Shown: in pieces, positions 16,989 through 42,303 of the stretch | Layout: each line of letters begins with the position of its first letter | How positions within the stretch are numbered: the first letter of the stretch is position 1 | Origin: Leptospiria bacterium | GTDB taxonomy: Bacteria > Spirochaetota > Leptospiria > Turneriellales > CBDBES01 | Direction of reading: 5' to 3' | DNA: 64,000 nt | NCBI GenBank assembly: GCA_965261485.1 | Contig: CBDHCY010000005.1 | Coordinates: 1,228,901 to 1,292,900 of the forward strand | Notes under the pieces: model-generated | Seen by the model: only the letters and a program-made list of their open reading frames with translations | The model's database searches: none | What the model was told of the DNA's origin: nothing | Translations under genes and position numbers: made by a program

Positions 16989-18965
16989 TTATCGTTGCCC
17001 GGGGAGCAGAGTATCGTATGACGCACATACGCCGTTTGTTATTGGGCTGACACATCTTTTGATCGCAGGCAGCTGCTTGGCAGTGCCTAGGTCCCAAGCA
17101 CTACCTAAACCATCGGGGTGCATGCCAGTTATGCTCTTTAGCTGGGCCAGCGTAAGGCCCGTCGCATTTACACTACTCCCAGAATTTACACTACTCCCGG
17201 AACCCTGTGCCTTCTTATTCTCAAGCGTTCGTTCGGTGACATTCACACTTTGGGGTGCGTCGGTGTTCCAATAACTATCTGTTATCGTCATAATAAAAGA
17301 AGAAGCAAAAGGAGAAGCGCCCAGCAGACCACCTGAATTAGAAACAGCAATAGCAATACTACTAAAAGAAGAGATTTTACCAGAACCACTAAAATAACTA
17401 TTAGTTATTACTAAAGATTTCTCAGAATAACCCACCAGACCACCTGAAGTAGAACCAGCACTAGTATTATTAGAAGAAGAAAATATTTCACCAGAGCCAT
17501 TAAAATAACTATTCACTATCGTCAAAGAAGCAGAAGACTGGCCCACCAGACCGCCTGAAGTAGAATGCAAAACATTGGCATAAGAAGATATATCACCAGA
17601 ACCACTAACATAACTATTCATTATTACTAAAGAATTCTTAGAATAACCCACCAGACCGCCTGAGCCAAAAGACTTAAAAGTATTGGTAAGCTTGTTAGAG
17701 TAAGAAGAAACCCCAGCAGAACCACTAAAAATACTATTTATAATTACTAAACCAGTATCAGTTGAGGCGAAAACTTCACCCACCAAACCGCCTGATCGAG
17801 ACTGTTCAGAAGAACTAAAGACCCCACCTGAGCCACTGAAAGTGCATTCGCTTATTGTCAGAGAACCAGAAACACGACCAACCAAACCACCCACAGAATT
17901 AAAAGTAGTAACCAGAGCAGCATTAGCATAGATCGAGCCAGAGATGATCTCCACATTGCGAATCATTCCTCCATCTACCTGACCAAATAAACCGACAGCT
18001 ACAAGACTTGAATGCACCCAAAGATTGGCGATCGTATGATTATTTCCATCAAAAGTGCCAGTGAAGCTAGCAATAGTAGAGCCAATGGGTTCCAAAGAGG
18101 TGTCTATACTGGTGTCAATCACAGTTATCCGCTCGCCTGCATCGTCTTCATCACCGTCGGCATTTTTATCGATGCTCACCTCTGTTGTATCGATCACCCC
18201 ATTAGGTGTACCGTTCTTTCCACCGCCTGTATCAAGCAAGCTCAAAAGGTCAATGTTGGCTGTTAGCTCGTAGCCGTTGCAACTTCCTGAGGAGCAACCG
18301 CTTGAATTATTAGGTCCACCATTCTTCACACTTCTATAACTTGTGCCCGCCAAATTATGACGCATGTTATTGAGCATCTCAGCGGTATATATTTCAATTA
18401 AGCCATCACCATCATGATCAGCCTTAGAGCCTCCACCAGAGATCTCAACACCCGAAGCATAATTAAAGCTCATGTCATAAGCGAAAAGCTTATAAAAATA
18501 ATGGGTTGAAGCTGTAGCCTCGGAATCGATGAATGTAGTTTCGCTTGAGTTATACACCACCACACTTGAGGCACCAATTGACACGCCACTCGCATAATCT
18601 TGCCCTGTCGTGGGGGCATCTGATATGCTGCTTTCACTTCTCAAGATTAAAACCTTAGAAAAATCATCATCGCTAGGCTCGCTCCAAGTTAGAGTGATGC
18701 TAGTGCTATCTAAACTTGAGAAGCCACCACTTATAACGTTCTTTGGTGATGTTTTATCTTCTTCAGACCTAACACCCGGTCCTGGCATATCAGGTGCATC
18801 AGGTGCATCAGGTGAAACAGGTGGAACATTGTTGGGATTTTCTTTAGAACAAGACGCACCAAAAACGATACAAAATAATAAAAAACTAGCGACCACAGCC
18901 ATTAAACCACCTTTGATCACGCGAGCCACATAAAGTCTCATCCAATATTGTACATTTTCACACAT
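16989..18965 (-). CDS. Surface lipoprotein with FN3-like domain, Ca-binding DxDGDG motif and 6 GLUG-type (GGLVG) repeats (paralog L1)
   Basis: The ORF runs to 18998. I prefer the ATG at 18965 because GAGGAGG lies 6 nt upstream. Lipobox-type signal ...LLFCIVFGASC, FN3-like ITLTWSEPSDDDFSKVLILRS...YFYKLFAYD, then DHDGDGLIEIYTAEMLNNM. Six modules of GGLVGxSxxSLxIxNSYFSGSGxxSS follow, with the conserved C-terminus SYWNTDAPQSV...CASYDTLLPGQR. Confidence 0.85.
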   Translation of the reverse strand: MCENVQYWMRLYVARVIKGGLMAVVASFLLFCIVFGASCSKENPNNVPPVSPDAPDAPDMPGPGVRSEEDKTSPKNVISGGFSSLDSTSITLTWSEPSDDDFSKVLILRSESSISDAPTTGQDYASGVSIGASSVVVYNSSETTFIDSEATASTHYFYKLFAYDMSFNYASGVEISGGGSKADHDGDGLIEIYTAEMLNNMRHNLAGTSYRSVKNGGPNNSSGCSSGSCNGYELTANIDLLSLLDTGGGKNGTPNGVIDTTEVSIDKNADGDEDDAGERITVIDTSIDTSLEPIGSTIASFTGTFDGNNHTIANLWVHSSLVAVGLFGQVDGGMIRNVEIISGSIYANAALVTTFNSVGGLVGRVSGSLTISECTFSGSGGVFSSSEQSRSGGLVGEVFASTDTGLVIINSIFSGSAGVSSYSNKLTNTFKSFGSGGLVGYSKNSLVIMNSYVSGSGDISSYANVLHSTSGGLVGQSSASLTIVNSYFNGSGEIFSSSNNTSAGSTSGGLVGYSEKSLVITNSYFSGSGKISSFSSIAIAVSNSGGLLGASPFASSFIMTITDSYWNTDAPQSVNVTERTLENKKAQGSGSSVNSGSSVNATGLTLAQLKSITGMHPDGLGSAWDLGTAKQLPAIKRCVSPITNGVCASYDTLLPGQR

Positions 18966-19059
18966 AAAACGCCTCCTCAGACATTGACCGCATTTCACTA
19001 TGCCGATCTTGCAAATAAATTAAGTTAGAATCGCCTTCAATCTTGATGGGTGCTTCAAC

Positions 19060-19122
19060 ACCACGAAAAAAATAAAATAAAAGGCCAAAGATTTCAGCAA
19101 AAGCCACGACTTTTGCTGAAAT
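19060..19122 (-). terminator. Rho-independent-type terminator hairpin between the microsatellite and the L1 gene
   Basis: Perfect 13-bp inverted repeat atttcagcaaaag (19091-19103) / cttttgctgaaat (19110-19122) with a 6-nt loop. On the minus strand it is followed by ctttggccttttattttattttttt. Confidence 0.55.
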
Positions 19123-19232
19123 AACATGCATGATAATTAGGGCTAACGCCCCGCTTCTAAAATTTTTGAGAAAAATGCCGCGAAGGCACGACCTATTTTT
19201 TTTAGAGAATAAACTAAGACCTAAGTCTAGTG

Positions 19233-19386
19233 TCTGTAGTTCTGTAGTTCTGTAGTTCTGTAGTTCTGTAGTTCTGTAGTTCTGTAGTTCTGTAGTTCTG
19301 TAGTTCTGTAGTTCTGTAGTTCTGTAGTTCTGTAGTTCTGTAGTTCTGTAGTTCTGTAGTTCTGTAGTTCTGTAGTTCTGTAGTTC
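19233..19386. repeat. Perfect octanucleotide microsatellite (tctgtagt / actacaga), about 19 copies
   Basis: Uninterrupted tctgtagt repeats run from 19233 to about 19386. They lie between the stop of the Rpn gene (19563) and the terminator hairpin upstream of L1. Confidence 0.97.
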
Positions 19387-19562
19387 ATTCATTTTTCCAA
19401 GCCCCACACAGAGACAGCCTCAGTCAACAATGCCTGCACATGTTGTCAACGTTTTTTTATTTTTTATGTAAAATTGATGTCGCAACTTCGCACATGACGT
19501 GTGAAAAAAGCGGGTAAAAAAAGAGACTATTTTCTGCTAATCACAAACGATGCCAGATCCGC

Positions 19563-20564
19563 CTATGGTCGTAAATGCTCAATCTCTTCTATAGAAAGAC
19601 CGGTGCTTCTTGAGATCACTTTAATAGAGAAACCCTCTTTCAAGAGACTTTGAGCTACTTCAGCCTTGCCCTTAGCCACGCCCTTAGTCATGCCCTTAGT
19701 CATGCCCTCGGTTATGCCCTCGGTTATGCCTTCGGCTCTGCCCTTAGTCATGCCCTTAGTCATGCCCTCAGTTATGCCCTTAGCTATTAGCTCGTCTGCA
19801 ATGGATCTCATATCCCCTCCTGCCTTTGGTGAAATGTATTGCCCAGCACTCTTTACAATAAAATCAATAGTAAACCCGCCAGTGCTAGTAATAATATAGT
19901 TCAATAAAACATCAAGCATTTTCTTATTTTCTTGAGAGATTCGTGCATAATAATCTTTGAAAAGATCTTCTAAGCGTGACCTGCTCGATAAAAACCAAAT
20001 ATCCTGTAGACTTTTTAAAAATGCCTGTACAGCCACAGAGAAATCGGTGAACTCTGTTTTATCTGAGCGAAGATCAAGTAATTCATAGTGAAAGTCTGGT
20101 ATGTATTTTTGTAAAGACTTTCTCAGATGCTCAGGAATCACTAAAGAACTGCTGAAGAGCGTGGGAATATCCCACTCTTTTTTTCCGTGATAAAGCACTA
20201 AAGGAATCACGGGCATTGTGCTCGTTTTATAAATTCCAGCTAAATACATGAGAAGCTGTGAATGAATATTTTTTTCTTTATACGATTTATGTTCTATCAG
20301 ACAAAAAACGCCCAGCCTTTTTGATTCCAAAGATTTCGCAGATTCTGAATCTGATTGCTTTTTGATAGGTACGCTGTAGAGAATATCAGTGAATCGTTCT
20401 TGATCTGTTGCATCAATAAAGCACCCTTTCTCTATTTGTAATTTTATAAAGTCTAGCTCTGATGTGATCTCTTTAGGCAGAGCATTTTTAAGAAAATCTA
20501 CCGCATAAGTTTTTTGTGATAAAACTTGTTTGGTTATGATGTCGTGTTGGTTTAGCTTTGCCAT
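19563..20564 (-). CDS. Rpn/YhgA-like recombination-promoting nuclease (PD-(D/E)XK putative transposase family)
   Basis: 333 aa. The N-terminus (HDIITKQVLSQKTYAVDFLKNALP ... RFTDILYSV ... FCLIEHKSYKEK...QLLMYL) matches the Rpn/YhgA-like nuclease core. The C-terminus has 5-aa repeats (GITEG/GMTKG, 15-bp units, about 19672-19790) and a helix-rich tail (AQSLLKEGFSIKVISRSTGLSIEEIEHL) typical of the family. Confidence 0.8.
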   Translation of the reverse strand: MAKLNQHDIITKQVLSQKTYAVDFLKNALPKEITSELDFIKLQIEKGCFIDATDQERFTDILYSVPIKKQSDSESAKSLESKRLGVFCLIEHKSYKEKNIHSQLLMYLAGIYKTSTMPVIPLVLYHGKKEWDIPTLFSSSLVIPEHLRKSLQKYIPDFHYELLDLRSDKTEFTDFSVAVQAFLKSLQDIWFLSSRSRLEDLFKDYYARISQENKKMLDVLLNYIITSTGGFTIDFIVKSAGQYISPKAGGDMRSIADELIAKGITEGMTKGMTKGRAEGITEGITEGMTKGMTKGVAKGKAEVAQSLLKEGFSIKVISRSTGLSIEEIEHLRP

Positions 20565-23730: not shown

Positions 23731-25713
23731 TTATTCTAAACTCTCTAACCATAATTTCACATCAGCATCGCTAGGCATTCTCCAATCTGTTCGTGATGAA
23801 AGAGCAACAGAGCCAATCTTTACTCCATCAGGCATCGCTGACCTCTTAAACTGATATTTAAAAAATCGCTTATAAAAAATAATAAGCCACTTTTTAATCG
23901 TTACTTGGTTATATTTTTTATTAAAGGCTGTCTCTGCTAAAAATAATATTTTTTTAGGATGAAAACCATAACGAATCATGTAAAAGATAAAAAAATCATG
24001 AAGCTCGTAAGGTCCAATTTTTTCTTCTGTTTTTTGAGTGATTCGCTCACCATCAGTTGGTAAAAGCTCAGGTGAAATCGGTGTGTCACAAATACTTTTA
24101 AGTACTTCTTGAATCTCCCCCTTATACTCAACCTCAGAAAACCACTCAACCAAAGAATAGACCAATGTTTTGGGCACACCAGAGTTTACCTGATACATCG
24201 ACATATGATCTCCATTATAGGTACACCAACCTAAAGCAATTTCTGAAAGATCACCAGTCCCTATAACTATACCATTGATTTGATTTGCAATATCCATAAG
24301 AATTTGTGTTCTTTCTCTCGCTTGAGAGTTTTCAAAAACAATATTGTATTGACCAATTTCATGTTGGATATCTTTAAAATGTTGATTTAACGCATTTGTT
24401 ATTTCGATTGTGCGTAAGCTAGCTCCTAATAAAGTACACAATTTTTGAGCGTTCTTTTTTGTCGTTTGGGTTGTACCAGGACCAGGCATTGTAATTACGA
24501 TAATATCTTTTGAAGAATAGCCTAATATCTGATAGGCTTTTAGAGTAACCAAAAAAGCTAAAGTGGAATCAAGACCCCCAGAAAGACCAATAACATTTTT
24601 TATAGAGCCTACTTTTTTAAGCCGTTTAACAAGAGCGGCGGTTTGAATAGAAAAAATCTCTTGGCAAACCTTTGAACGCTCTGATTTATCTTCTGGTACA
24701 AAAGGTTTTGGAGGTATAGAACGATACAAATTTTTAATGAAACACTTATCTCTATTTTTTTTGAGGAGATTAAGCTCAAAGGGAATTGTCGTATATGTGC
24801 TACTCGATGAAAATGTCGAAAAGACACTACTTTTAAGCCGTTCATGAGTAAGTCTGCCAATATCAATATCTGAAATAATGTACGAACCATCAAAACAAAA
24901 AAGTTGACTTTCTTTAAGTAAAACTCCATTTTCTGCAATTAAACAATGTCCAGAAAAAACAGTATCTGTCGTAGATTCATTAGGCCCAGCGGAGGCATAC
25001 AAATAAGCAGATAGACACCGAGCAGATTGTTGTTTAACTAAATCTCGACGATAATTAGCCTTACCCAAGGTTTCGTTTGAAGCTGACAGATTTAAAAAAA
25101 CATTCCCACCATTTAATGCCATTTCACTACTAGGTGGGTTGGGAGCCCATAAATCTTCACAGATATCAACACCAAAAATACATTCTTCAAAATCTCTAGC
25201 CTGAAATAAGAGGCGAGGACCAAATAATACTTTTTGTTCCCCAAAAATAATTGTTTGTGTTAGTTCCGTTTTTCCCGAACTAAACCAACGGTTTTCATAA
25301 TATTCATTTTTATTGGGTAAATATGACTTTGGTATCAAACCTAATAAATTACCTTGGCTAATAAATGCAGCAACATTATAGAGCCTCCCTTTAAGCTCTA
25401 TAGGTAAACCAACGATACAGGTCATATTTGTTTTAGCAGAAACTTTACTAATTATTTTTAATCCTTTTTTACACGCATCTAATAGATTTTTTTGATAAAA
25501 GAGATCTCCACAAGTATACCCGCTAATACAAAGTTCTGGGAAAAGAGCAATTTTTGATTGTTTGTTTGATGCAATTTTTAAGTGTTCTACAATATTATTT
25601 ATATTGTAATTCACATTGGCAACCTCTAATGGAGGGGAGTGAACCGTAACACGTAAAAATTGCAAATAGTCTACTTGCATAGACCTAGAATTAAACGAAT
25701 AACAAATTGTCAT
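23731..25713 (-). CDS. nadE: Glutamine-dependent NAD+ synthetase
   Basis: 660 aa. The N-terminal CN-hydrolase domain (FPELCISGYTCGDLF, CEDLW) is fused to an NAD synthetase domain (GLSGGLDSTL). The real start may be the internal ATG at 25680. Confidence 0.9.
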   Translation of the reverse strand: MTICYSFNSRSMQVDYLQFLRVTVHSPPLEVANVNYNINNIVEHLKIASNKQSKIALFPELCISGYTCGDLFYQKNLLDACKKGLKIISKVSAKTNMTCIVGLPIELKGRLYNVAAFISQGNLLGLIPKSYLPNKNEYYENRWFSSGKTELTQTIIFGEQKVLFGPRLLFQARDFEECIFGVDICEDLWAPNPPSSEMALNGGNVFLNLSASNETLGKANYRRDLVKQQSARCLSAYLYASAGPNESTTDTVFSGHCLIAENGVLLKESQLFCFDGSYIISDIDIGRLTHERLKSSVFSTFSSSSTYTTIPFELNLLKKNRDKCFIKNLYRSIPPKPFVPEDKSERSKVCQEIFSIQTAALVKRLKKVGSIKNVIGLSGGLDSTLAFLVTLKAYQILGYSSKDIIVITMPGPGTTQTTKKNAQKLCTLLGASLRTIEITNALNQHFKDIQHEIGQYNIVFENSQARERTQILMDIANQINGIVIGTGDLSEIALGWCTYNGDHMSMYQVNSGVPKTLVYSLVEWFSEVEYKGEIQEVLKSICDTPISPELLPTDGERITQKTEEKIGPYELHDFFIFYMIRYGFHPKKILFLAETAFNKKYNQVTIKKWLIIFYKRFFKYQFKRSAMPDGVKIGSVALSSRTDWRMPSDADVKLWLESLE

Positions 25714-31405: not shown

Positions 31406-33952
31406 CTATCTTTGCCCGGGGAGTAGGGCACCGTATGACGCACACGTCCTCCAATCAGTGACACCATTCGTTGTAATTGTGGGAATACACAACTTAACCG
31501 CGGGTAATTGCATGTTGCTGCCTAGGTCCCAAGCTTTTGTGTTATCAGCAGCACTATGTGAGAGACCACCGTCGGGATCGGTGTTACTTATGGCTTGTAG
31601 TTGCACTAGCGTAAGACCTGTTATACCTGATGGGTCAACTACATCCGCGGCATTACCCAATGCCCGATCGGCGACGAGCGTTTGTCCAGAGATACTTTGA
31701 GGTGCATCGGTATTCCAGTAAGACCTCATGACTGTCAAAGAAGAAAGAATTCGCCCCACCAAACCGCCAGAATAAGAAAAAGGATCTACGAAAGAAGATA
31801 CACCACTAGAACCACTAAAATAACTATTCACTATTATTGAAGAAGCTCCCAAATAACCCACCAGACCACCAGAATAAGAAGGAGCAGCAGCAGAAGAAGA
31901 AGAGACTTCACCAGAACCACTAAAATAACTATTCACTATTCTTGAATCACCAGCAGAATAACCCACCAGACCACCAGAAGCAGAATAAGAAGCAGCAGAA
32001 GAAGAAGAAGAAGAAACTCCACCAGAACCACTAAAATAACTATTCACTATTTTTGAAGCACTCGCAGAAAAACCCAGCAGACCACCTGAATAAGCATAAG
32101 AAGAAGAAGAAGAGGAGACTCCACCAGAACCACTAAAATAACTATTCACTATTATTGGAGCACTAGCAGAAGAACCCACCAGACCACCGGCAATAGTAGA
32201 AGGAGTAGTAGAAGGGGAGGAAGAGAAGGAAGATACACCACCCAATCCACTAAAATAGCTGCTAATCATCGTCAAAGAAGAAAGAGTTCGCCCCACCAAA
32301 CCGCCAGAAGAGGAAGCATAAGAAGAAGAAGAAGAAGAGACTCCACCAGAACCACTAAAATAACTATTAGTTATTGTCAAAGAAGAAGTGTTGGAAAGTC
32401 CCACTAGACCACCTGAATAAGAAAAAGAAAAAGAAGAAGAAGAGACTCCACCAGAACCACTAAAATAACATTTGATTATCCTCAAAACACCTTCAGAAGA
32501 ACCCACCAGACCACCTAAAGAAGAAGCAGCAAAAGAAGAAGAAGAGACGACTCCACCAGAACCACTAAAATAACTATTTATTATCGTCAAATCATCTTCA
32601 GAAGAACCCACCAGACCACCGGCAATAGTAGAAAGAGTAGTAGAAATAGAAGAAGCAAATACTGATCCTGAAATGATTCCCACATTGTGAATCTCTACAG
32701 ACCCTTTGACAAAACCAAATAAACCCGCATAAACATCACTTGTGGAAGAATCAATATTCACCCAAAGATTCCCAATGGTATGGTTGTTACCCTCGAAAAT
32801 GCTAGTAAATGGAGCAGATGCATCGCCAATAGGCACCCAGCTTGTGTCTTTGCCCGTGTCCGTATTAATCACCTTCACCTTCTCACCTGCATCATCAGTG
32901 TTTCCGTTGGCATTTTTATCAATGCCCTTCGGCGTCGTATCGATTTTTCCATTTCTGTTTGCATCAAGCAAACTCAAAAGATCAATATGGGCTGTTAACT
33001 CATAGCCATTGCAAACGTTGTTTGGACAACCATCAACATTACCTCTTGCTTGTTCTGCTGCCGAGCTTTTATAACTTGCACCTGCCAAATCATGACGCAT
33101 GTTATCGAGCATTTCAGCAGTATATATCTCAATCAAGCCATCACCATCATGATCGGCCTTAAAGCCTCCGCCAGAAATTTCAATACCTGAAGCATAATTA
33201 AAACTCGAATCATAAGCAAATAGCTTATAATAATAATGGGTTGAGGCTACTCTAGCCCCTGCCTCGGAATCTTTAAATGTAGTTGTATTTGAGTTATACA
33301 CCATGATTGAGCTACCAATTGAATTAGAATTTGCATAATCTTGCCCTGTTGTTGGAACATATGATATTGAATTTTCACTCCTTAAAATCAAAATTTTATA
33401 AAAATTAGCACCGATAGGGTTGCTCCAAGCTAGAGTTATGCCCTCATTATCTAAATTTAAAAACCTACTATTTATGACATTTTTGGGTGATGTGGGTGAT
33501 ATGGTACCTCCTTCAAATTCAACGCCCGAAGCATAATTAAAGCTACTGTCATAAGCAAAAATCTTATAAAAATAAGTGGCACCTTCTGTAATTTTCATGT
33601 CTGTAAAAGTTGACATCTCTGCGTGATGCACCACTTTTGAGCCACCAATCAAATCAACATTTACATAGCTTTTCCCTACCTCAGGAGTATCTGATATTGA
33701 GCTTTCACTCCTTAAAATTAAAACCTGAGAAAAATCAACATCGGTAGGGTTGCTCCAGCTTAACATTATTTCGTTTGAATTACGCCGAAAAACAAAATTT
33801 GTGATATTGCCTGGTGGGTTCTCATCTAAGATTATTGGTAATCTATCATTTGGTAGATCACTCAGATCTTTTTTAACACAAAACGCACTAAAGATGATGC
33901 AAACTAAGACTAAACCTCGGGTAACCTTAAACAATGATTTAACTACACTCAT
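31406..33952 (-). CDS. Surface lipoprotein with two FN3-like domains, DHDGDG motif and 9 GLUG-type repeats with Ser tracts (paralog L3)
   Basis: 848 aa. Signal MSVVKSLFKVTRGLVLVCIIFSAFC, two copies of the [IM]LSWSNPTD/ITLAWSNPI...YFYK[IL]FAYDSSFNYASG module, and nine GGL[VL]G modules. The C-terminus is ...CASYGALLPGQR. Confidence 0.85.
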   Translation of the reverse strand: MSVVKSLFKVTRGLVLVCIIFSAFCVKKDLSDLPNDRLPIILDENPPGNITNFVFRRNSNEIMLSWSNPTDVDFSQVLILRSESSISDTPEVGKSYVNVDLIGGSKVVHHAEMSTFTDMKITEGATYFYKIFAYDSSFNYASGVEFEGGTISPTSPKNVINSRFLNLDNEGITLAWSNPIGANFYKILILRSENSISYVPTTGQDYANSNSIGSSIMVYNSNTTTFKDSEAGARVASTHYYYKLFAYDSSFNYASGIEISGGGFKADHDGDGLIEIYTAEMLDNMRHDLAGASYKSSAAEQARGNVDGCPNNVCNGYELTAHIDLLSLLDANRNGKIDTTPKGIDKNANGNTDDAGEKVKVINTDTGKDTSWVPIGDASAPFTSIFEGNNHTIGNLWVNIDSSTSDVYAGLFGFVKGSVEIHNVGIISGSVFASSISTTLSTIAGGLVGSSEDDLTIINSYFSGSGGVVSSSSFAASSLGGLVGSSEGVLRIIKCYFSGSGGVSSSSFSFSYSGGLVGLSNTSSLTITNSYFSGSGGVSSSSSSYASSSGGLVGRTLSSLTMISSYFSGLGGVSSFSSSPSTTPSTIAGGLVGSSASAPIIVNSYFSGSGGVSSSSSSYAYSGGLLGFSASASKIVNSYFSGSGGVSSSSSSAASYSASGGLVGYSAGDSRIVNSYFSGSGEVSSSSAAAPSYSGGLVGYLGASSIIVNSYFSGSSGVSSFVDPFSYSGGLVGRILSSLTVMRSYWNTDAPQSISGQTLVADRALGNAADVVDPSGITGLTLVQLQAISNTDPDGGLSHSAADNTKAWDLGSNMQLPAVKLCIPTITTNGVTDWRTCASYGALLPGQR

Positions 33953-34001
33953 TCAAACATCTCTATCTATTATAAAATATACCTCAACTCTTCACGGAAG
34001 A

Positions 34002-34030
34002 TTATCTCATGGAAGATATATTTTGTCAAA
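34002..34030 (-). promoter_or_regulatory. Sigma-70-like promoter candidate for L3 (TTGACA-N17-GATAAT)
   Basis: On the minus strand, ttgaca (34030-34025), a 17-nt spacer, then gataat (34007-34002), about 50 nt upstream of the L3 ATG at 33952. Confidence 0.45.
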
Positions 34031-34104
34031 TATAAAAATAATAAAGTTGATCAAAAAAAATATTTTTTCATGGCAGAATATCTACCCAAAATCTCAGTTC
34101 AGCC

Positions 34105-36676
34105 CTATCTTTGCCCGGGGAGTAGGGCACCGTATGACGCACACATCGCCCAATCAGTGACACCATTCGTTCTAATTGTAGGAATACACAACTTAACCGC
34201 GGGTAATTGCGTGTTGCTGCCTAGGTCCCAAGCTTTTATGTTATCAGCAGCACTATGTGAGAGACCACCGTCGGGATCGGTGTTACTTATGGCTTGTAGT
34301 TGAACTAGCGTAAGACCCGTCGTACCTACTACCTCCACAGTACCTGATTCACCCACCAAAGCAGCTGAGTTGCTACTCTCAACATCACCCTGCGCCCGTT
34401 TTGGGTCTTGATTAGTGCCGCCAACACTTTGAGGTGCGTCGGTGTTCCAGTAAGACCTCATGACCATCAAAGGAAAAGGAGTTCGCCCCACCAAACCACC
34501 AAAATAAGAATTAGAAGGATCTATAGACAAAGATACACCACCAGAACCACTAAAATAACTATTAGTTATTGTCAAAGCATCTCCAGAATAACCTACCAGA
34601 CCACCTGAAGTAGAAGAAGAAGTAGAAGAAGAAGTAGAAGAAGAGACTCCACCCGCACCGCTAAAATAACTATTAACTATTTCTGAAGCACCAGCAGAAG
34701 AACCCACCAGACCACCTGAAGAAGAAGTAGAAGAAGAAGAAGAAGAAACCCCAGCAGAACCACTAAAATAACTATTAACTATCGTCAAAAAACTATCAGA
34801 AGAACCCACCAGACCGCCTGAATAAGAAGAAGAAGGAGAAGAAGAAGTAGAAGAAGAGACTCCACCCGCACCGCTAAAATAACTATTAACTATTATTGAA
34901 ACACTAGCAGAAGAACCCACCAGACCGCCTGAATAAGAAAAAGGAGAAGAGGAAGAAAAAACCCCAGCAGAACCACTAAAATAACTATTAATTATCGTCA
35001 AATCATCTCCAGTATAACCCACCAGACCACCTGAATAAGAAAGAGAAGAAGAAGAAGAAGAAGAGACTCCACCCGAACCACTAAAATAACTATCAACTAT
35101 CGTCAAAAAACTATCAGAAGAACCCACCAGACCGCCTGAATAAGAAGAAGAAGAAGAAGAAGAAGAGACTCCACCCATACCGCTAAAATAACATTTGATT
35201 ATCCTCAAAACACCTTCAGAAGAACCCACCAGACCACCTAAATAAGAAGCAGCAAAAGAAGAAGAAGAGACGACTCCACCAGAACCACTAAAATAACTAT
35301 TTATTATCGTCAAATCATCTTCAGAATAACCCACCAGACCACCGGCAATAGTAGAAGGAGTAGGAAATAGAAGAAGCAAATACTGATCCTGAAATGATTC
35401 CCACATTGTGAATCTCTACAGACCCTTTGACAAAACCAAATAAACCCGCATAAACATCACTTGTGGAAGAATCAATATTCACCCAAAGATTCGCTATGGT
35501 ATGGTTGTTACCCTCAAAAATGCTAGTAAATGGAGCAGATGCATCGCCAATGGGCACCCAGCTTGTGTCTTTGCCCGTGTCCGTATTAATCACCTTCACC
35601 TTCTCACCTGCATCATCAGTGTTTCCGTTGGCATTTTTATCAATGCCCTTCGGCGTCGTATCGATTTTTCCATTTCTGTTTGCATCAAGCAAACTCAAAA
35701 GATCAATATGGGCTGTTAGCTCATAGCCATTGCAAACGTTGTTTGGACAACCATCAACATTACCTCTTGCTTGTTCTGCTGTCGAGCTTTTATAACTTGC
35801 ACCTGCCAAATCATGACGCATGTTATCGAGCATTTCAGCAGTATATATCTCAATCAAGCCATCACCATCATGATCGGCCTCAGAGCCTCCGCCAGAAATT
35901 TCAATACCTGAAGCATAATTAAAATTCGAATCATAAGCAAATAGCTTATAATAATAATGGGTTGAAACTACTGTAGCTCCCCTATCTTTAAATGTAGTTG
36001 CATTTGAGTTATACACCATGGTTAAGCTACCAATTGAATTAAAATTCGCATAATCTTGCCCTCTTGTTGGAACATATGATATTGAATTTTCACTCCTTAA
36101 AATTAAAATTTTATAAAAATTAGCATCGATAGGGTTGCTCCAAGCTAGAGTTATGCCCTCATTATTTAAATTTAAAAACCTACTATTTATGACATTTTTG
36201 GGTGATATGGGTGATATGGGTGATATGGTACTTCCTTCAAATTCAACGCCCGAAGCGTAATTAAAGCTACTGTCGTAAGCAAAAATCTTATAAAAATAAG
36301 TGGCACCTTCTGTAATTTTTATGTCTGTAAAAGTTGATATCTCTGCGTGATACATCACTTTTGAACCACCAATCAAATCAACATTTACATAGCTTTTCCC
36401 TACCTCAGGAGTATCTGATATTGAGCTTTCACTCTTTAAAATTAAAACCTGAGAAAAATCAACATCAGTAGGGTTGCTCCAGCTTAATATTATTTCGTTT
36501 GAATTACGCCGAAAAACAAAATTTGTGATATTGCCTGGTGGGTTCTCATCTAAGATTATTGGTAATCTATCATTTGGTAGATTACCCAGATCTTTTTTAA
36601 CACAAGACGCACTAAAAATGATGCAAACTAAGACTAAACCTCGGGTAACCTTAAACAATGATTTAACTACACTCAT
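34105..36676 (-). pseudogene. GLUG-repeat lipoprotein paralog L4, split by a 2-bp deletion (frameshift)
   Basis: Two overlapping ORFs, 35321..36676 (N-terminal 451 aa) and 34105..35406 (C-terminal part with 9 GLUG modules), together align end to end with L3. At about 35355-35365 L4 reads ggagtaggaaat, where L3 (about 32645-32660) reads agagtagtagaaat. The frame shifts from ...ASSISTTLSTIAGGLVG to ...ASSISYSFYYCRWSGGLF-stop. Confidence 0.8.
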
Positions 36677-36724
36677 TCAAACATCTCTATCTATTATAAA
36701 ATATACTCCAACTCTTCACGGAAG

Positions 36725-36753
36725 ATTATCTCATGGAAGATATATTTTGTCAA
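36725..36753 (-). promoter_or_regulatory. Sigma-70-like promoter candidate for L4 (TTGACA-N17-GATAAT)
   Basis: Same motif pair as upstream of L3: ttgaca at 36753-36748 and gataat at 36730-36725 on the minus strand. Confidence 0.45.
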
Positions 36754-36828
36754 ATATAAAAATAATAAAATTTATCAAAAAATTTATTTTTTCATGGCAG
36801 AATATCTACCCAAAATCTCAGTTCAGCC

Positions 36829-39561
<2,733 letters not shown>

Positions 39562-39699
39562 TCAAACATCTCTATTTATTAGAAAATATACCTCAAACTC
39601 TTCATGGAAGATATATTTTGTCAAATATAAAAATAATAAAGTTGACCAAAAAAATTATTTTTTCATGGCAGAATATCTACCCAAAATCTCAGTTCAGCC

Positions 39700-42303
39700 C
39701 TATCTTTGCCCGGGGAGTAGGGCACCGTATGACGCACACATCGCCCAATCAGTGACACCATTCGTTCTAATTGTAGGAATACACAACTTAACCGCGGGTA
39801 ATTGCGTGTTGCTGCCTAGGTCCCAAGCTTTTATGTTATCAGCAGCACTAGGTGAGAGACCACCGTCGGGATCGGTGTTACTTATGGCTTGTAGTTGAAC
39901 TAGCGTAAGACCCGTCGTACCTGCTACCTCCACAGTACCTGATTCACCCACCAAAGCAGCTGAGTTGCTACTCTCAACATTACCCTGCGCCCGTTTTGGG
40001 TTTTGATCAGTGTCGCCAATACTTTGAGGTGCATCGGTGTTCCAGTAAGACCTCATGATCGTCAAAGAAATAGAAGAACCCACCAGACCACCTGAAGAAG
40101 AAGAAGAAGAAGAAGAAGAAGAAGAAGCAAATACACCACCCAATCCACTAAAATAACTATTTATTATCGTCAAAGCAGCTTCAGAAGAACCCACCAGACC
40201 GCCTGAATAAGAAAGAGAAGAAGCAGAAGAAGAGGAGGAGGAGGAAGAAACCCCAGCAGAACCACTAAAATAACTATTAATTATTTTGAGAGTACTAGTA
40301 GAATAACCCACCAGACCACCTGAATAAGAAGAAGAACCAGAAGAGAAGGAAGAAACCCCAGCAGAACCACTAAAATAACTATTAACTATTGTCAAAGAAA
40401 TAGAAGAACCCACCAAACCACCTGAAGAAGAAGAAGAACCAGAAGAAGAAGAGATTCCACCAGAACCACTAAAATAACTATTAGTTATTGTCAAAGTACT
40501 AGTAGAAGAACCCACCAGACCACCTGAACGAGAAAAAGAAGGGGAAAAAGAAGATACACCACCCAATCCACTAAAATAACTATTAACTATCGTCAAAGAA
40601 CTATCAGAAAACCCCACCAGACCGCCTGAGGTAGAAGAAGAGGAAGAAGAAGAAGAAGAAGAGGAAGAAGAGACTCCACCAGAACCACTAAAATAACTAT
40701 TAGTTATTGTCAAAGCACCTTCAGGAGAACCCACCAGACCACCTGAATAAGAAAAAGAAAAAGAAGAAGAAGTAGAAGAAGAGACTCCACCAGAACCACT
40801 AAAATAACTATTAGTTATTGTCAAAGCACCTTCAGAAGAACCCACCAGACCACCTGAATAAGAAAAAGAAGAAGAAAAAGAAGAAGAAGAAGAAGAAGAG
40901 ACTCCACCAGAACCACTAAAATAACACTTAATTATCGTCAAAGCACTAGCAGAATAACCCACCAGACCACCTGAATAAGAAAAAAAAGAAGAAGAAGAAG
41001 CAAATACTGATCCTGAAATGATTCCCACATTGTGAATCTCTACAGACCCTTTGACAAAACCAAATAAACCCGCATAAACATTACTTGTGGAAGAATCAAT
41101 ATTCACCCAAAGATTCGCGATGGTATGATTGTTGCCCTCAAAAATACCCGTAAAGGCATTAGTGTTAGAATCACCAATGGGCACCCAGCTTCTGTCTTTG
41201 GCAGTATCAATCACCTTCACCTTCTCACCTGTATCTGACGTATCGTCATCGGCATTTTTATCAATGCCCTTCGACGTCGTATCGATTTTTCCATTTCTGT
41301 TTGCATCAAGCAAATTCAAAAGATCAATATGGGCTGTTAACTCATAGCCATTGCAAACGTTGTTTGGACAACCATCAACATTACCTCTTGCTTGTTCTGC
41401 TGCCGAGCTTTTATAACTTGCACCTACCAAATCATGACGCATGTTATCGAGCATTTCAGCAGTATATATCTCAATCAAACCATCACCATCATGATCGGCC
41501 TTAGAGCCTCCGCCAGAAATTTCAATACCTGAAGCATAATTAAAACTCGAATCATAAGCAAATAGCTTATAATAATAATGGGTTGAAGCTACTGTAGCCC
41601 CTGCCCCAGAATCTTTAAATGTAGTTGCATTTGAGTTATACACCATGGTTAAGCTACCAATTGAATTAAAATTCGCATAATCTTGCCCTCTTGTTGGAAC
41701 ATATGATATTGAATTTTCACTCCTTAAAATTAAAATTTTATAAAAATTAGCATCGATAGGGTTGCTCCAAGCTAGAGTTATGCCCTCATTATTTAAATTT
41801 AAAAACCTACTATTTATGACATTTTTGGGTGATATGGGTGATATGGGTGATATGGTACCTCCTTCAAACTCAACGCCCGAAGCATAATTAAAGCTACTAT
41901 CATAAGCAAAAATCTTATAAAAATAAGTGACACCTTCTGTAATTTTTATATCTGTAAAAGTTGATATCTCTTCGTGATACATCACTTTTGAGCCACCAAT
42001 CAAATCAACATTTACATAGCTTTTCCCTACCTCAGGAGCATCTGATATTGAGCTTTCACTCCTTAAAATTAAAACCTGAGAAAAATCAACATCGGTAGGG
42101 TTGCTCCAGCTTAACATTATTTTGTTTGAATTACGCCGAAAAACAAAATTCATGATATTGCCTGGTGATATCTCATCTAAGATTATTGGTGATGTATTAT
42201 TTGGTAGATTACTCAGATCATTTTTGACACAAGACGCACCAAAAATAATGCAAACTAAGACTAAACCTCGGGTGATCTTAAACAATGATTTAACTATACT
42301 CAT
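39700..42303 (-). CDS. Surface lipoprotein with two FN3-like domains and 9 GLUG-type repeats (paralog L6)
   Basis: 867 aa. The N-terminal roughly 330 aa are almost identical to L5. It has nine GGLVG modules and poly-Ser runs of up to 11 residues. The C-terminus is ...CASYGALLPGQR. Confidence 0.85.
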   Translation of the reverse strand: MSIVKSLFKITRGLVLVCIIFGASCVKNDLSNLPNNTSPIILDEISPGNIMNFVFRRNSNKIMLSWSNPTDVDFSQVLILRSESSISDAPEVGKSYVNVDLIGGSKVMYHEEISTFTDIKITEGVTYFYKIFAYDSSFNYASGVEFEGGTISPISPISPKNVINSRFLNLNNEGITLAWSNPIDANFYKILILRSENSISYVPTRGQDYANFNSIGSLTMVYNSNATTFKDSGAGATVASTHYYYKLFAYDSSFNYASGIEISGGGSKADHDGDGLIEIYTAEMLDNMRHDLVGASYKSSAAEQARGNVDGCPNNVCNGYELTAHIDLLNLLDANRNGKIDTTSKGIDKNADDDTSDTGEKVKVIDTAKDRSWVPIGDSNTNAFTGIFEGNNHTIANLWVNIDSSTSNVYAGLFGFVKGSVEIHNVGIISGSVFASSSSFFSYSGGLVGYSASALTIIKCYFSGSGGVSSSSSSSFSSSFSYSGGLVGSSEGALTITNSYFSGSGGVSSSTSSSFSFSYSGGLVGSPEGALTITNSYFSGSGGVSSSSSSSSSSSSSTSGGLVGFSDSSLTIVNSYFSGLGGVSSFSPSFSRSGGLVGSSTSTLTITNSYFSGSGGISSSSGSSSSSGGLVGSSISLTIVNSYFSGSAGVSSFSSGSSSYSGGLVGYSTSTLKIINSYFSGSAGVSSSSSSSSASSLSYSGGLVGSSEAALTIINSYFSGLGGVFASSSSSSSSSSSGGLVGSSISLTIMRSYWNTDAPQSIGDTDQNPKRAQGNVESSNSAALVGESGTVEVAGTTGLTLVQLQAISNTDPDGGLSPSAADNIKAWDLGSNTQLPAVKLCIPTIRTNGVTDWAMCASYGALLPGQR

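Follow-up and report, generated by a model that had tools for sequence, protein, structure and literature searches.

A repeat-gated leader reading frame as a candidate phase-variation switch of sixteen lipoprotein genes in a relative of Leptospira

A 64,000-nt stretch of DNA from a Leptospiria bacterium (G000:C5:1228901-1292900, hereinafter the window; genome of 2.21 Mb, 33% GC) contains a perfect octanucleotide repeat upstream of a lipoprotein gene, designated L1. The repeat lies in a 5' control cassette of L1, where we propose that it works as a slipped-strand switch through translation of a leader open reading frame (ORF), as in pil1 of Streptococcus gallolyticus. From the sequence, we lean modestly towards this reading. 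The same cassette stands in front of 16 paralogous lipoprotein genes. A broader proposal, which in our judgement could equally be right or wrong, is that the cassette is a portable leader-peptide switch. Specifically, a repeat-gated signal-peptide ORF would have acquired an in-frame hairpin before a U-run as an attenuator, would have been docked on the start of a new gene, and would now gate the 16 paralogs independently.

The array consists of 19.25 units of TCTGTAGT, or ACTACAGA on the lipoprotein strand, and sequence inspection reveals no mismatch. Tandem Repeats Finder (TRF) reports it at 19228-19386, with a period of 8, 19.8 copies and 99% matches. A three-unit probe gives 17 in-register matches, against 0 expected from 100 dinucleotide-preserving shuffles. 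The perfect, uninterrupted 8-bp tract of about 19 units described in the initial annotation is thus confirmed.

Perfect arrays of this octamer occur at 16 loci in the genome, with 6.4-50.2 copies (51-402 bp). The leader and the 5' coding sequence are 91-100% identical among the 16 cassettes, whereas the repeat number has a roughly eight-fold spread. For example, the window locus has 19 units and the sister locus at C5:101557 has 50 units, while their leaders are 99% identical. Near-identical flanks with divergent lengths are the best available evidence that tract length changes faster than the flanks mutate. The initial annotation had called the tract an actively slipping, contingency-type repeat, and the spread of 16 perfect paralogous arrays between flanks of 91-99% identity bears this out. 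The array of the cassette at C5:2058235-2058398 is compound, with (ACTACAGA)6 followed by (CCTACAGA)14, indicating that a unit variant spread via slippage. A 17th copy of the cassette, at C5:1877250, resembles a decayed switch: its array is degenerate, the ACCTACAA/ACCTAGGA units are interrupted and contain in-frame TAGs, and the leader is missing its first 54 nt. The bare octamer is also present in 42 metagenome contigs, but these contigs have a GC content of 37-64% and share no flank homology, and were therefore rejected as unrelated microsatellites.

Each of the 16 arrays is followed by one shared leader and lipoprotein signal-peptide sequence. The homology among cassettes starts about 25 nt 5' of a TTGACA motif whatever the upstream DNA, extends across the signal peptide, and falls off after it. 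The arrays are followed by genes for 16 paralogous proteins of 561-739 aa, with mature parts that are 39-88% identical. Pfam detects GLUG motifs in paralogs of L1; L1 itself has no match in Pfam or in a PDB sequence search. The DNA upstream of the arrays contains a full or partial paralog of rpn at eight loci, an rpn remnant at one, and unrelated sequence at seven. Because seven of the 16 arrays have no rpn upstream while all have the lipoprotein leader downstream, we assign the array to the lipoprotein gene, as part of its 5' control region. The layout first described for the window is correct, with the rpn stop codon (19563-19565) 176 nt from the array, a hairpin on the far side, and L1 next on the minus strand. 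As for the placement of the tract, the initial annotation was right to put it outside the core promoter, and the tract does lie in a separate short reading frame; a place in the 3' untranslated region (UTR) of rpn is not supported.

The order of elements on the lipoprotein strand, defined by alignment of the flanks, is the same in 16 of 16 cassettes. It comprises an A-tract with TTGACA, 16 nt, TTGACT, a variable stretch, a G-rich motif, an ATG, (ACTACAGA)n, a leader of ~265 nt, GAGGAGG, 6 nt, and the lipoprotein ATG (Table 1). The A-tract and TTGACA are also kept in a sister family with heptamer repeats (see below) and form a putative promoter, with TTGACA as the -35 element. The second TTGAC(T) motif could be the -10 region or a binding site for a regulator. 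Between TTGACT and the leader ATG, five of the 16 cassettes carry an insertion of ~33 nt (…gcctacaatttgagattgcctacaactgaagtt…, an imperfect direct repeat), namely those at C5:164961, 367871, 372801 and 1224976 and, in a shorter form, 2058235. Thus, the spacing between the TTGACT motif and the leader ATG is not critical.

Table 1. Elements of the switch cassette at the window locus and the adjoining genes, in the direction of lipoprotein transcription. Positions are those of the window; the Rpn gene, a neighbour outside the switch, is given last.
Feature	Position	Strand	Remarks
A-rich tract acataaaaaataaaaaaacg and perfect -35-like TTGACA (19449-19444); 5' edge of the cassette; putative promoter	19444-19470	-	Homology of the 16 cassettes starts here
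Second motif TTGAC(T), 16 nt past the first; direct repeat GTTGAC..GTTGAC with 22-bp period	19422-19427	-	(Nearly) conserved in 16/16
G-rich motif GGGG, like a Shine-Dalgarno (SD) sequence (GAGG or AGGG at sister loci), 9-11 nt 5' of the leader ATG	19401-19405	-	Start contexts of 16 loci
Leader-ORF starts, ATGAATG: ATG 19392-19390 and ATG 19388-19386, in different frames	19386-19392	-
Octamer array (ACTACAGA)x19.25	19233-19386	-	Perfect; stop-free in three frames; peptide NYRTTELQ repeated
Stops of the two short (predicted OFF) frames: TAG 19229-19227 and TAG 19216-19214	19214-19229	-
Small hairpin A, GUGCC-uucgc-GGCAU, then UUUUUCUC	19175-19192	-	Weakly terminator-like
Hairpin C, 14-bp stem AUUUCAGCAAAAGU-cgug-GCUUUUGCUGAAAU	19091-19122	-
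U-run UUUUAUUUUAUUUUUUU, 17 nt, 8-10 nt past hairpin C	19066-19082	-	Conserved in 16/16
Leader ORF, long frame, 144 codons, first ATG to TGA 18960-18958	18958-19392	-	Spans the array, all hairpins and the U-run
Lipoprotein SD GAGGAGG, strong	18972-18978	-	Predicted within a local hairpin
Lipoprotein gene L1, 658 aa; ATG 18965-18963 overlaps the leader stop (ATGTGTGA); signal peptide MCENVQYWMRLYVARVIKGGLMAVVASFLLFCIVFGASC	16989-18965	-
Rpn/YhgA-like (Transposase_31) gene	19563-20564	-	Pfam E=2.8e-33

The initial annotation pointed out that the unit is not a multiple of three and that a function depending on translation or spacing would switch as units come and go. Consistent with this, the array lies inside an ATG-initiated ORF, and the three frames part right after it. 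Any change by one 8-nt unit would therefore put a ribosome into a different frame of the 265-nt leader. At all 16 loci an ATG directly adjoins the array, with the G-rich, SD-like motif 9-11 nt 5' of it; the 16S rRNA of this genome ends in ...CACCUCCUU and has the standard anti-SD CCUCC. At every locus, two of the three frames stop 3-20 nt past the array, while the third is open for about 89 codons past it. This long frame ends in 14 of the 16 loci at a stop codon that overlaps the lipoprotein start, at +5 of the ATG (ATGTGTGA / ATGTATAA); the other two loci have 1 nt inserted close to the 3' end, and there it terminates at a TGA within the SD. The remaining leader frames contain 4-13 stops. 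A given frame is free of stops in 0.6% of 20,000 dinucleotide-preserving shuffles (P=0.006), and any frame in 1.9%. The short frames end ~90-105 nt 5' of hairpin C, and the long frame ends ~130 nt past hairpin C, on the lipoprotein ATG. The long frame is offset from the frame of the lipoprotein, and hence the repeat is not part of the lipoprotein's own coding sequence, in contrast to an opa-type gene. On the lipoprotein strand the array is stop-free in all three frames, while the opposite strand contains TAG. As estimated from base composition, roughly one in two random AT-rich octamers would lack stops on any one strand, and the stop-free array was therefore rejected as evidence for coding.

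The leader has a predicted fold of -74.4 kcal/mol (z=-2.2 vs shuffles). Its most prominent element is hairpin C (ΔG -18.7 kcal/mol, z=-2.9), which lies wholly inside the long frame. Across the 16 copies, only 2 of 192 stem positions are broken on the lipoprotein strand, compared with 21 of 192 on the opposite strand, because the substitutions are compatible with G-U pairs. This bias argues that hairpin C acts as RNA in the lipoprotein sense. Together with the U-run, hairpin C is terminator-like. A consensus terminator scan called only the weak hairpin A (19192-19175; ΔG -6.6, z=-1.2) and not hairpin C; hairpin A is also present in the coding region of the heptamer family and is thus ancestral. 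In folds predicted by RNAalifold and by minimum free energy, the lipoprotein SD is sequestered in a local hairpin, and the start codon is paired with a segment just 5' of hairpin C. Rfam matched no family in the region 18800-19700.

These elements suggest the following mechanism. Transcription probably starts in the conserved block of A-tract and TTGACA 5' of the array. Ribosomes would initiate at the ATG abutting the array and read through the stop-free octamers. In two frames, translation would end 3-20 nt past the array, leaving the long leader untranslated. In the untranslated leader, hairpin C and the U-run, possibly with the help of Rho, would stop transcription, and the SD and AUG of the lipoprotein would be folded, giving an OFF or low state. 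In the third frame, ribosomes would cross the hairpin and the U-run and terminate at the stop that overlaps the lipoprotein ATG (ATGTGTGA). Translation of the long frame would thereby cause anti-termination and hand ribosomes over to the lipoprotein start, giving an ON state. All 16 downstream genes are intact whatever their predicted state, as expected of a reversible switch.

The origin of the leader ORF can be traced to a repeat-gated signal peptide. A census of the 2.2-Mb genome gives at least 35 long perfect non-triplet tracts, which form four multi-locus families besides single loci. The families are that of ACTACAGA (16 loci), a decamer (eight loci, plus one with an 11-mer variant), AAGGACGT (five loci) and GAGCACA (five loci, tandem at C5:540-548 kb). 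In the AAGGACGT and GAGCACA families, the repeat is inside the lipoprotein's own signal-peptide ORF. The GAGCACA, or heptamer, family consists of five tandem lipoprotein genes (C5:540297-548378), each with a perfect (GAGCACA)n of 8.6-22.6 units; all five appear out of frame in the assembly with either candidate ATG. The (GTCCTTAC)n / AAGGACGT octamer belongs to another lipoprotein family, with 9-21 units at C5:139047, 234671, 1125003, 1589562 and 1598823.

The peptide of the octamer long frame is homologous to the real signal peptide of the heptamer family (BLASTP E=6e-11, with one 13-residue gap). Specifically, ...FKKNRSCLHGIFLNNFNRFNSGASALIIGIGLLFCFFC|GGTDS of the heptamer family corresponds to ...SKKNRSCLRGIFLKNFRSGALALIIMHVISAKVVAFAEIFGLLFYFFRGVEAP of the octamer long frame, and the lipobox Cys of the former is Arg in the latter. 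The U-run is homologous to the LLFCFF codons of the heptamer family, that is, to the Leu/Phe-rich core of the old signal peptide, and hairpin C lies within a 39-nt in-frame insertion relative to that family. The leader ORF thus descends from an opa-type switch that lay within its gene, and it was once translated. The indels between the two families are 3, 9 and 39 nt, all multiples of 3. A 3-nt indel is present among the octamer copies, and the 17th copy has an apparent 6-nt insertion (seen by eye and left uncounted). The sole 1-nt indel lies beyond hairpin C and the U-run. This pattern suggests that the reading frame across the hairpin has stayed intact ever since.

Repeat gating of this lipoprotein family extends beyond the genome. 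G003, a Spirochaetota metagenome-assembled genome (MAG; CBDBLF01) of the same GTDB family and a different genus, encodes homologs of the lipoproteins, with 39-52% identity. At least 13 of its loci contain a different perfect octamer, (ATTCAATC)n, with 5.5-13.9 copies; the homologous lipoprotein loci with this repeat are L024, L027, L029, L031, L032, L036 and L037. The repeat is inserted between ATG-Tyr-Lys-(Glu/Arg)-Lys and the signal-peptide core, inside the signal-peptide ORF. These loci have a canonical TTGACT-N17-TATAAT promoter upstream, and two of the seven examined are in frame. Because the homologs in G003 are also gated by an octamer, 8-nt repeat gating of the lipoprotein family is a lineage trait. 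The detached leader-ORF cassette was found neither in the 40 relatives searched nor in JGI metagenome contigs; judged against these 40 relatives, the detached design is special to this genome. A search with the Rpn and NadE proteins of the window found no near-identical strain.

Several observations weigh against a leader-translation switch. A sigma-70 consensus scan of both strands from 18800 to 19700 found no promoter, and TTGACA is not followed by a convincing -10 element; the promoter assignment is accordingly only inferred. A manual search for sigma-54, sigma-28 and extended -10 motifs yielded nothing convincing. The lipoprotein gene has a GAGGAGG, beside which the SD-like motif of the leader is weak. 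Six of the 16 loci, a share equal to the random expectation, are in the long frame and predicted ON, namely C5:57191, 87790, 1224976, 1394450, 1855417 and, if its first ATG is used, the window locus, C5:1248133. At the window locus, the predicted state is ambiguous because ATGAATG offers two ATGs in different frames, the first (19392) entering the long frame and the second (19388) a short frame. The 59 substitution events in the long frame carry no significant coding signal, with 24 synonymous changes vs 17.9 expected and no new stop vs 0.93 expected (P=0.4), and so the open frame could be inherited and not maintained. Hairpin C and the U-run are non-canonical as a terminator, with the U-run offset 8-10 nt from the stem. 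Finally, RNAalifold finds only one compensatory pair across the copies, which gives negligible support for the pairing of SD and AUG; the covariation is minimal because the cassette copies are too similar.

The main rival explanation is that the ATG, array and leader ORF are a fossil, left over from the 5' end of an ancestral lipoprotein gene, behind which a new SD, ATG, signal peptide and gene were recombined. The repeat would then slip neutrally with little or no effect on L1, which would rely for expression on a strong SD, and perhaps a promoter, of its own. The descent of the leader from a signal peptide, with its homology to the heptamer family, the change of the lipobox Cys to Arg and a U-run made from Leu/Phe codons, fits this explanation, as does the lack of a significant coding signature in the substitutions. 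Moreover, the start of the lipoprotein gene is complete in itself, GAGGAGG-N6-ATG, and slippage alone keeps arrays pure, which makes selection unneeded. However, past the end of the former signal peptide the frame runs on for ~45 codons, and in 14 of 16 loci it stops precisely on the new start codon. Insertion of the hairpin left the frame intact, and the changes in the stem, being G-U compatible, preserve it; the ATG and the SD-like motif are kept in all 16 copies. Through translational coupling and polarity, the translation state of a leader affects the gene downstream. A 265-nt leader that ends on a start codon, translated or not, is thus very unlikely to be neutral. In addition, the interrupted copy at C5:1877250 shows what decay looks like, and the other 16 look different. 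We therefore regard a fossil as rather unlikely, if still to be taken seriously.

Another explanation is that the length of the array matters and not its frame. The array would tune expression through the distance or helical phase of the TTGAC motifs to a downstream promoter, or through the stability of the 5' UTR, comparable to the (GAA)n of Mycoplasma gallisepticum vlhA. The array does lie between the conserved TTGACA/TTGACT motifs and the gene, TTGACA has no clear -10 after it, and the T-run with TTGAAG past the hairpin resembles the T-run with TTGACT in the promoter of the G003 homologs. In vlhA, upstream repeats are reported to control a lipoprotein multigene family (PMC6258824). Nevertheless, a span of 51-402 bp is far too wide for a spacing-critical element, and 3' of the array there is no consensus promoter either. 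The abutting ATG, the quick stops in two frames and the 89-codon third frame docking on the start codon would be left unexplained, and the sister families and G003 use such repeats as a reading-frame switch. An effect of length is consequently quite unlikely.

It is very improbable that the tract is part of the rpn 3' UTR or another rpn-linked element, since the array, which does follow the rpn stop by 176 nt on the same strand and has an rpn paralog 160-215 nt upstream in eight of 16 cases, with all but one of the 24 rpn copies no more than 8.5 kb from an array, occurs without upstream rpn in seven cases and next to a divergent gene in at least four, and the cassette homology begins only ~95 nt past the rpn stop and continues into the lipoprotein gene in 16 of 16. 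Of the readings considered, the switch acting through leader translation is the one that we modestly favour.

The 24 Rpn/YhgA-like paralogs of the genome are 78-91% identical to the window copy, and tandem runs of four to five Rpn genes occur at C5:168975-174905 and 2061497-2066730. They may provide a recombination function linked to the variable lipoprotein loci. The C-terminus of the window copy is encoded by an imperfect 12-nt repeat, TGCCCTTAGTCA, of ~10 units (19667-19783), which specifies (G-M/I-T-K/E); the number of units differs between Rpn paralogs. A second lipoprotein gene of the window, L2 (21786-23723), has a mature part close to that of L1 and a different N-terminus, is without a switch cassette, and starts 8 nt past nadE (23731-25713). 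L2 could be co-transcribed constitutively, or could serve as a silent donor. GC-rich arrays with units of ~46 bp lie directly 3' of both L1 (15319-16937, ~31 units) and L2 (20686-21733, ~23 units). Further along the window, at 31406-42303, four more large ORFs on the minus strand (433-910 aa) contain internal repeats of 102-117 bp and GAA runs, and at least one has a GLUG motif.

If the proposed mechanism is true, only one case of repeat-driven leader-peptide attenuation would have been known before this cassette, and none in a diderm bacterium; the cassette would also be the first for which the evolutionary route from an opa-type in-gene switch can be seen. The 16 independently gated paralogs would give this uncultured relative of Leptospira up to 2^16 surface states. 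The three sister families, whose repeats lie in the signal peptide, and the 16-copy family with the same ORF detached form a natural series for how such a switch can evolve, and the 16 cassettes are internally replicated test cases. More generally, the tracts, at least 35 in 2.2 Mb, point to a large repertoire of potentially switchable surface genes in relatives of Leptospira, whether free-living or host-associated.

Short repeats are a familiar cause of phase variation, and in almost all cases the repeat is inside the gene or between promoter elements; a switch that works via the frame of a leader peptide is proven for the pili of S. gallolyticus only. In the literature searched, the S. gallolyticus study alone among 11 matching papers describes a leader-peptide repeat mechanism, octanucleotide repeats are mentioned together with phase variation in only two papers, and no repeat-switched lipoproteins are described in relatives of Leptospira. 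The opa genes of Neisseria have CTCTT repeats in the region coding for the signal peptide and form a multigene surface family with combinatorial on/off states. The sister families here (heptamer, AAGGACGT octamer and decamer) and the G003 homologs share exactly this design. In the ACTACAGA cassette, in contrast, the repeat-bearing ORF is separate from the gene and ends where the lipoprotein ORF begins, in another frame. Because the ORF that bears the repeat is not the gene itself, the switch must act indirectly.

In trp and erm attenuation, the position of the ribosome on a leader ORF decides whether a downstream hairpin forms, and in stop/start overlaps of the AUGA type one ORF ends on the start of the next. 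The proposed switch is similar in both respects, a ribosome on the leader ORF governing the hairpin and the leader stop overlapping the next start. It differs in its input, which would be a heritable, reversible number of DNA repeats and not amino-acid supply or an antibiotic. In M. gallisepticum vlhA, a variable (GAA)n ~40 nt 5' of the promoters of a lipoprotein multigene family is reported to act on transcription initiation (PMC6258824). Both systems comprise a large lipoprotein family in which each copy has a variable upstream repeat in a conserved 5' region; the vlhA repeat is a triplet upstream of the promoter, whereas the octamer here is 3' of the putative -35 element and inside an ORF.

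The closest parallel is pil1 of S. gallolyticus, in which the number of GCAGA repeats determines how long a leader peptide is, and a premature terminator of -18.7 kcal/mol is destabilised by the long forms, as demonstrated experimentally (Danne et al. 2014, PMC3894217). As in pil1 and pil3, a perfect non-triplet repeat lies inside a small ORF, here a predicted one, of the 5' leader, and a surface structure would be switched stochastically. As in pil1, a short frame stops 5' of a stem-loop (39 bp before it in pil1, ~90-105 nt here), frameshifted long peptides reach into or past the stem-loop, and the stem-loop energy is, by coincidence, the same. There are also differences. The pil1 mechanism is proven experimentally, and that of the present cassette is predicted from sequence. 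The unit is 8 nt here and 5 nt (GCAGA) in pil1, the U-run is offset from the stem, and the host is a Gram-negative-type spirochaete. One of the three frames is long here and runs 265 nt to a stop that overlaps the ATG of the structural gene, so that translational coupling is possible besides anti-termination. There are 16 loci, predicted to switch independently, instead of one or two, and the leader ORF can be recognised as a former signal peptide. Thus, the octamer unit, the stop/start overlap with the structural gene, the 16 paralogs with their predicted independent gating and the traceable origin from an in-gene switch are what is distinctive of this cassette.

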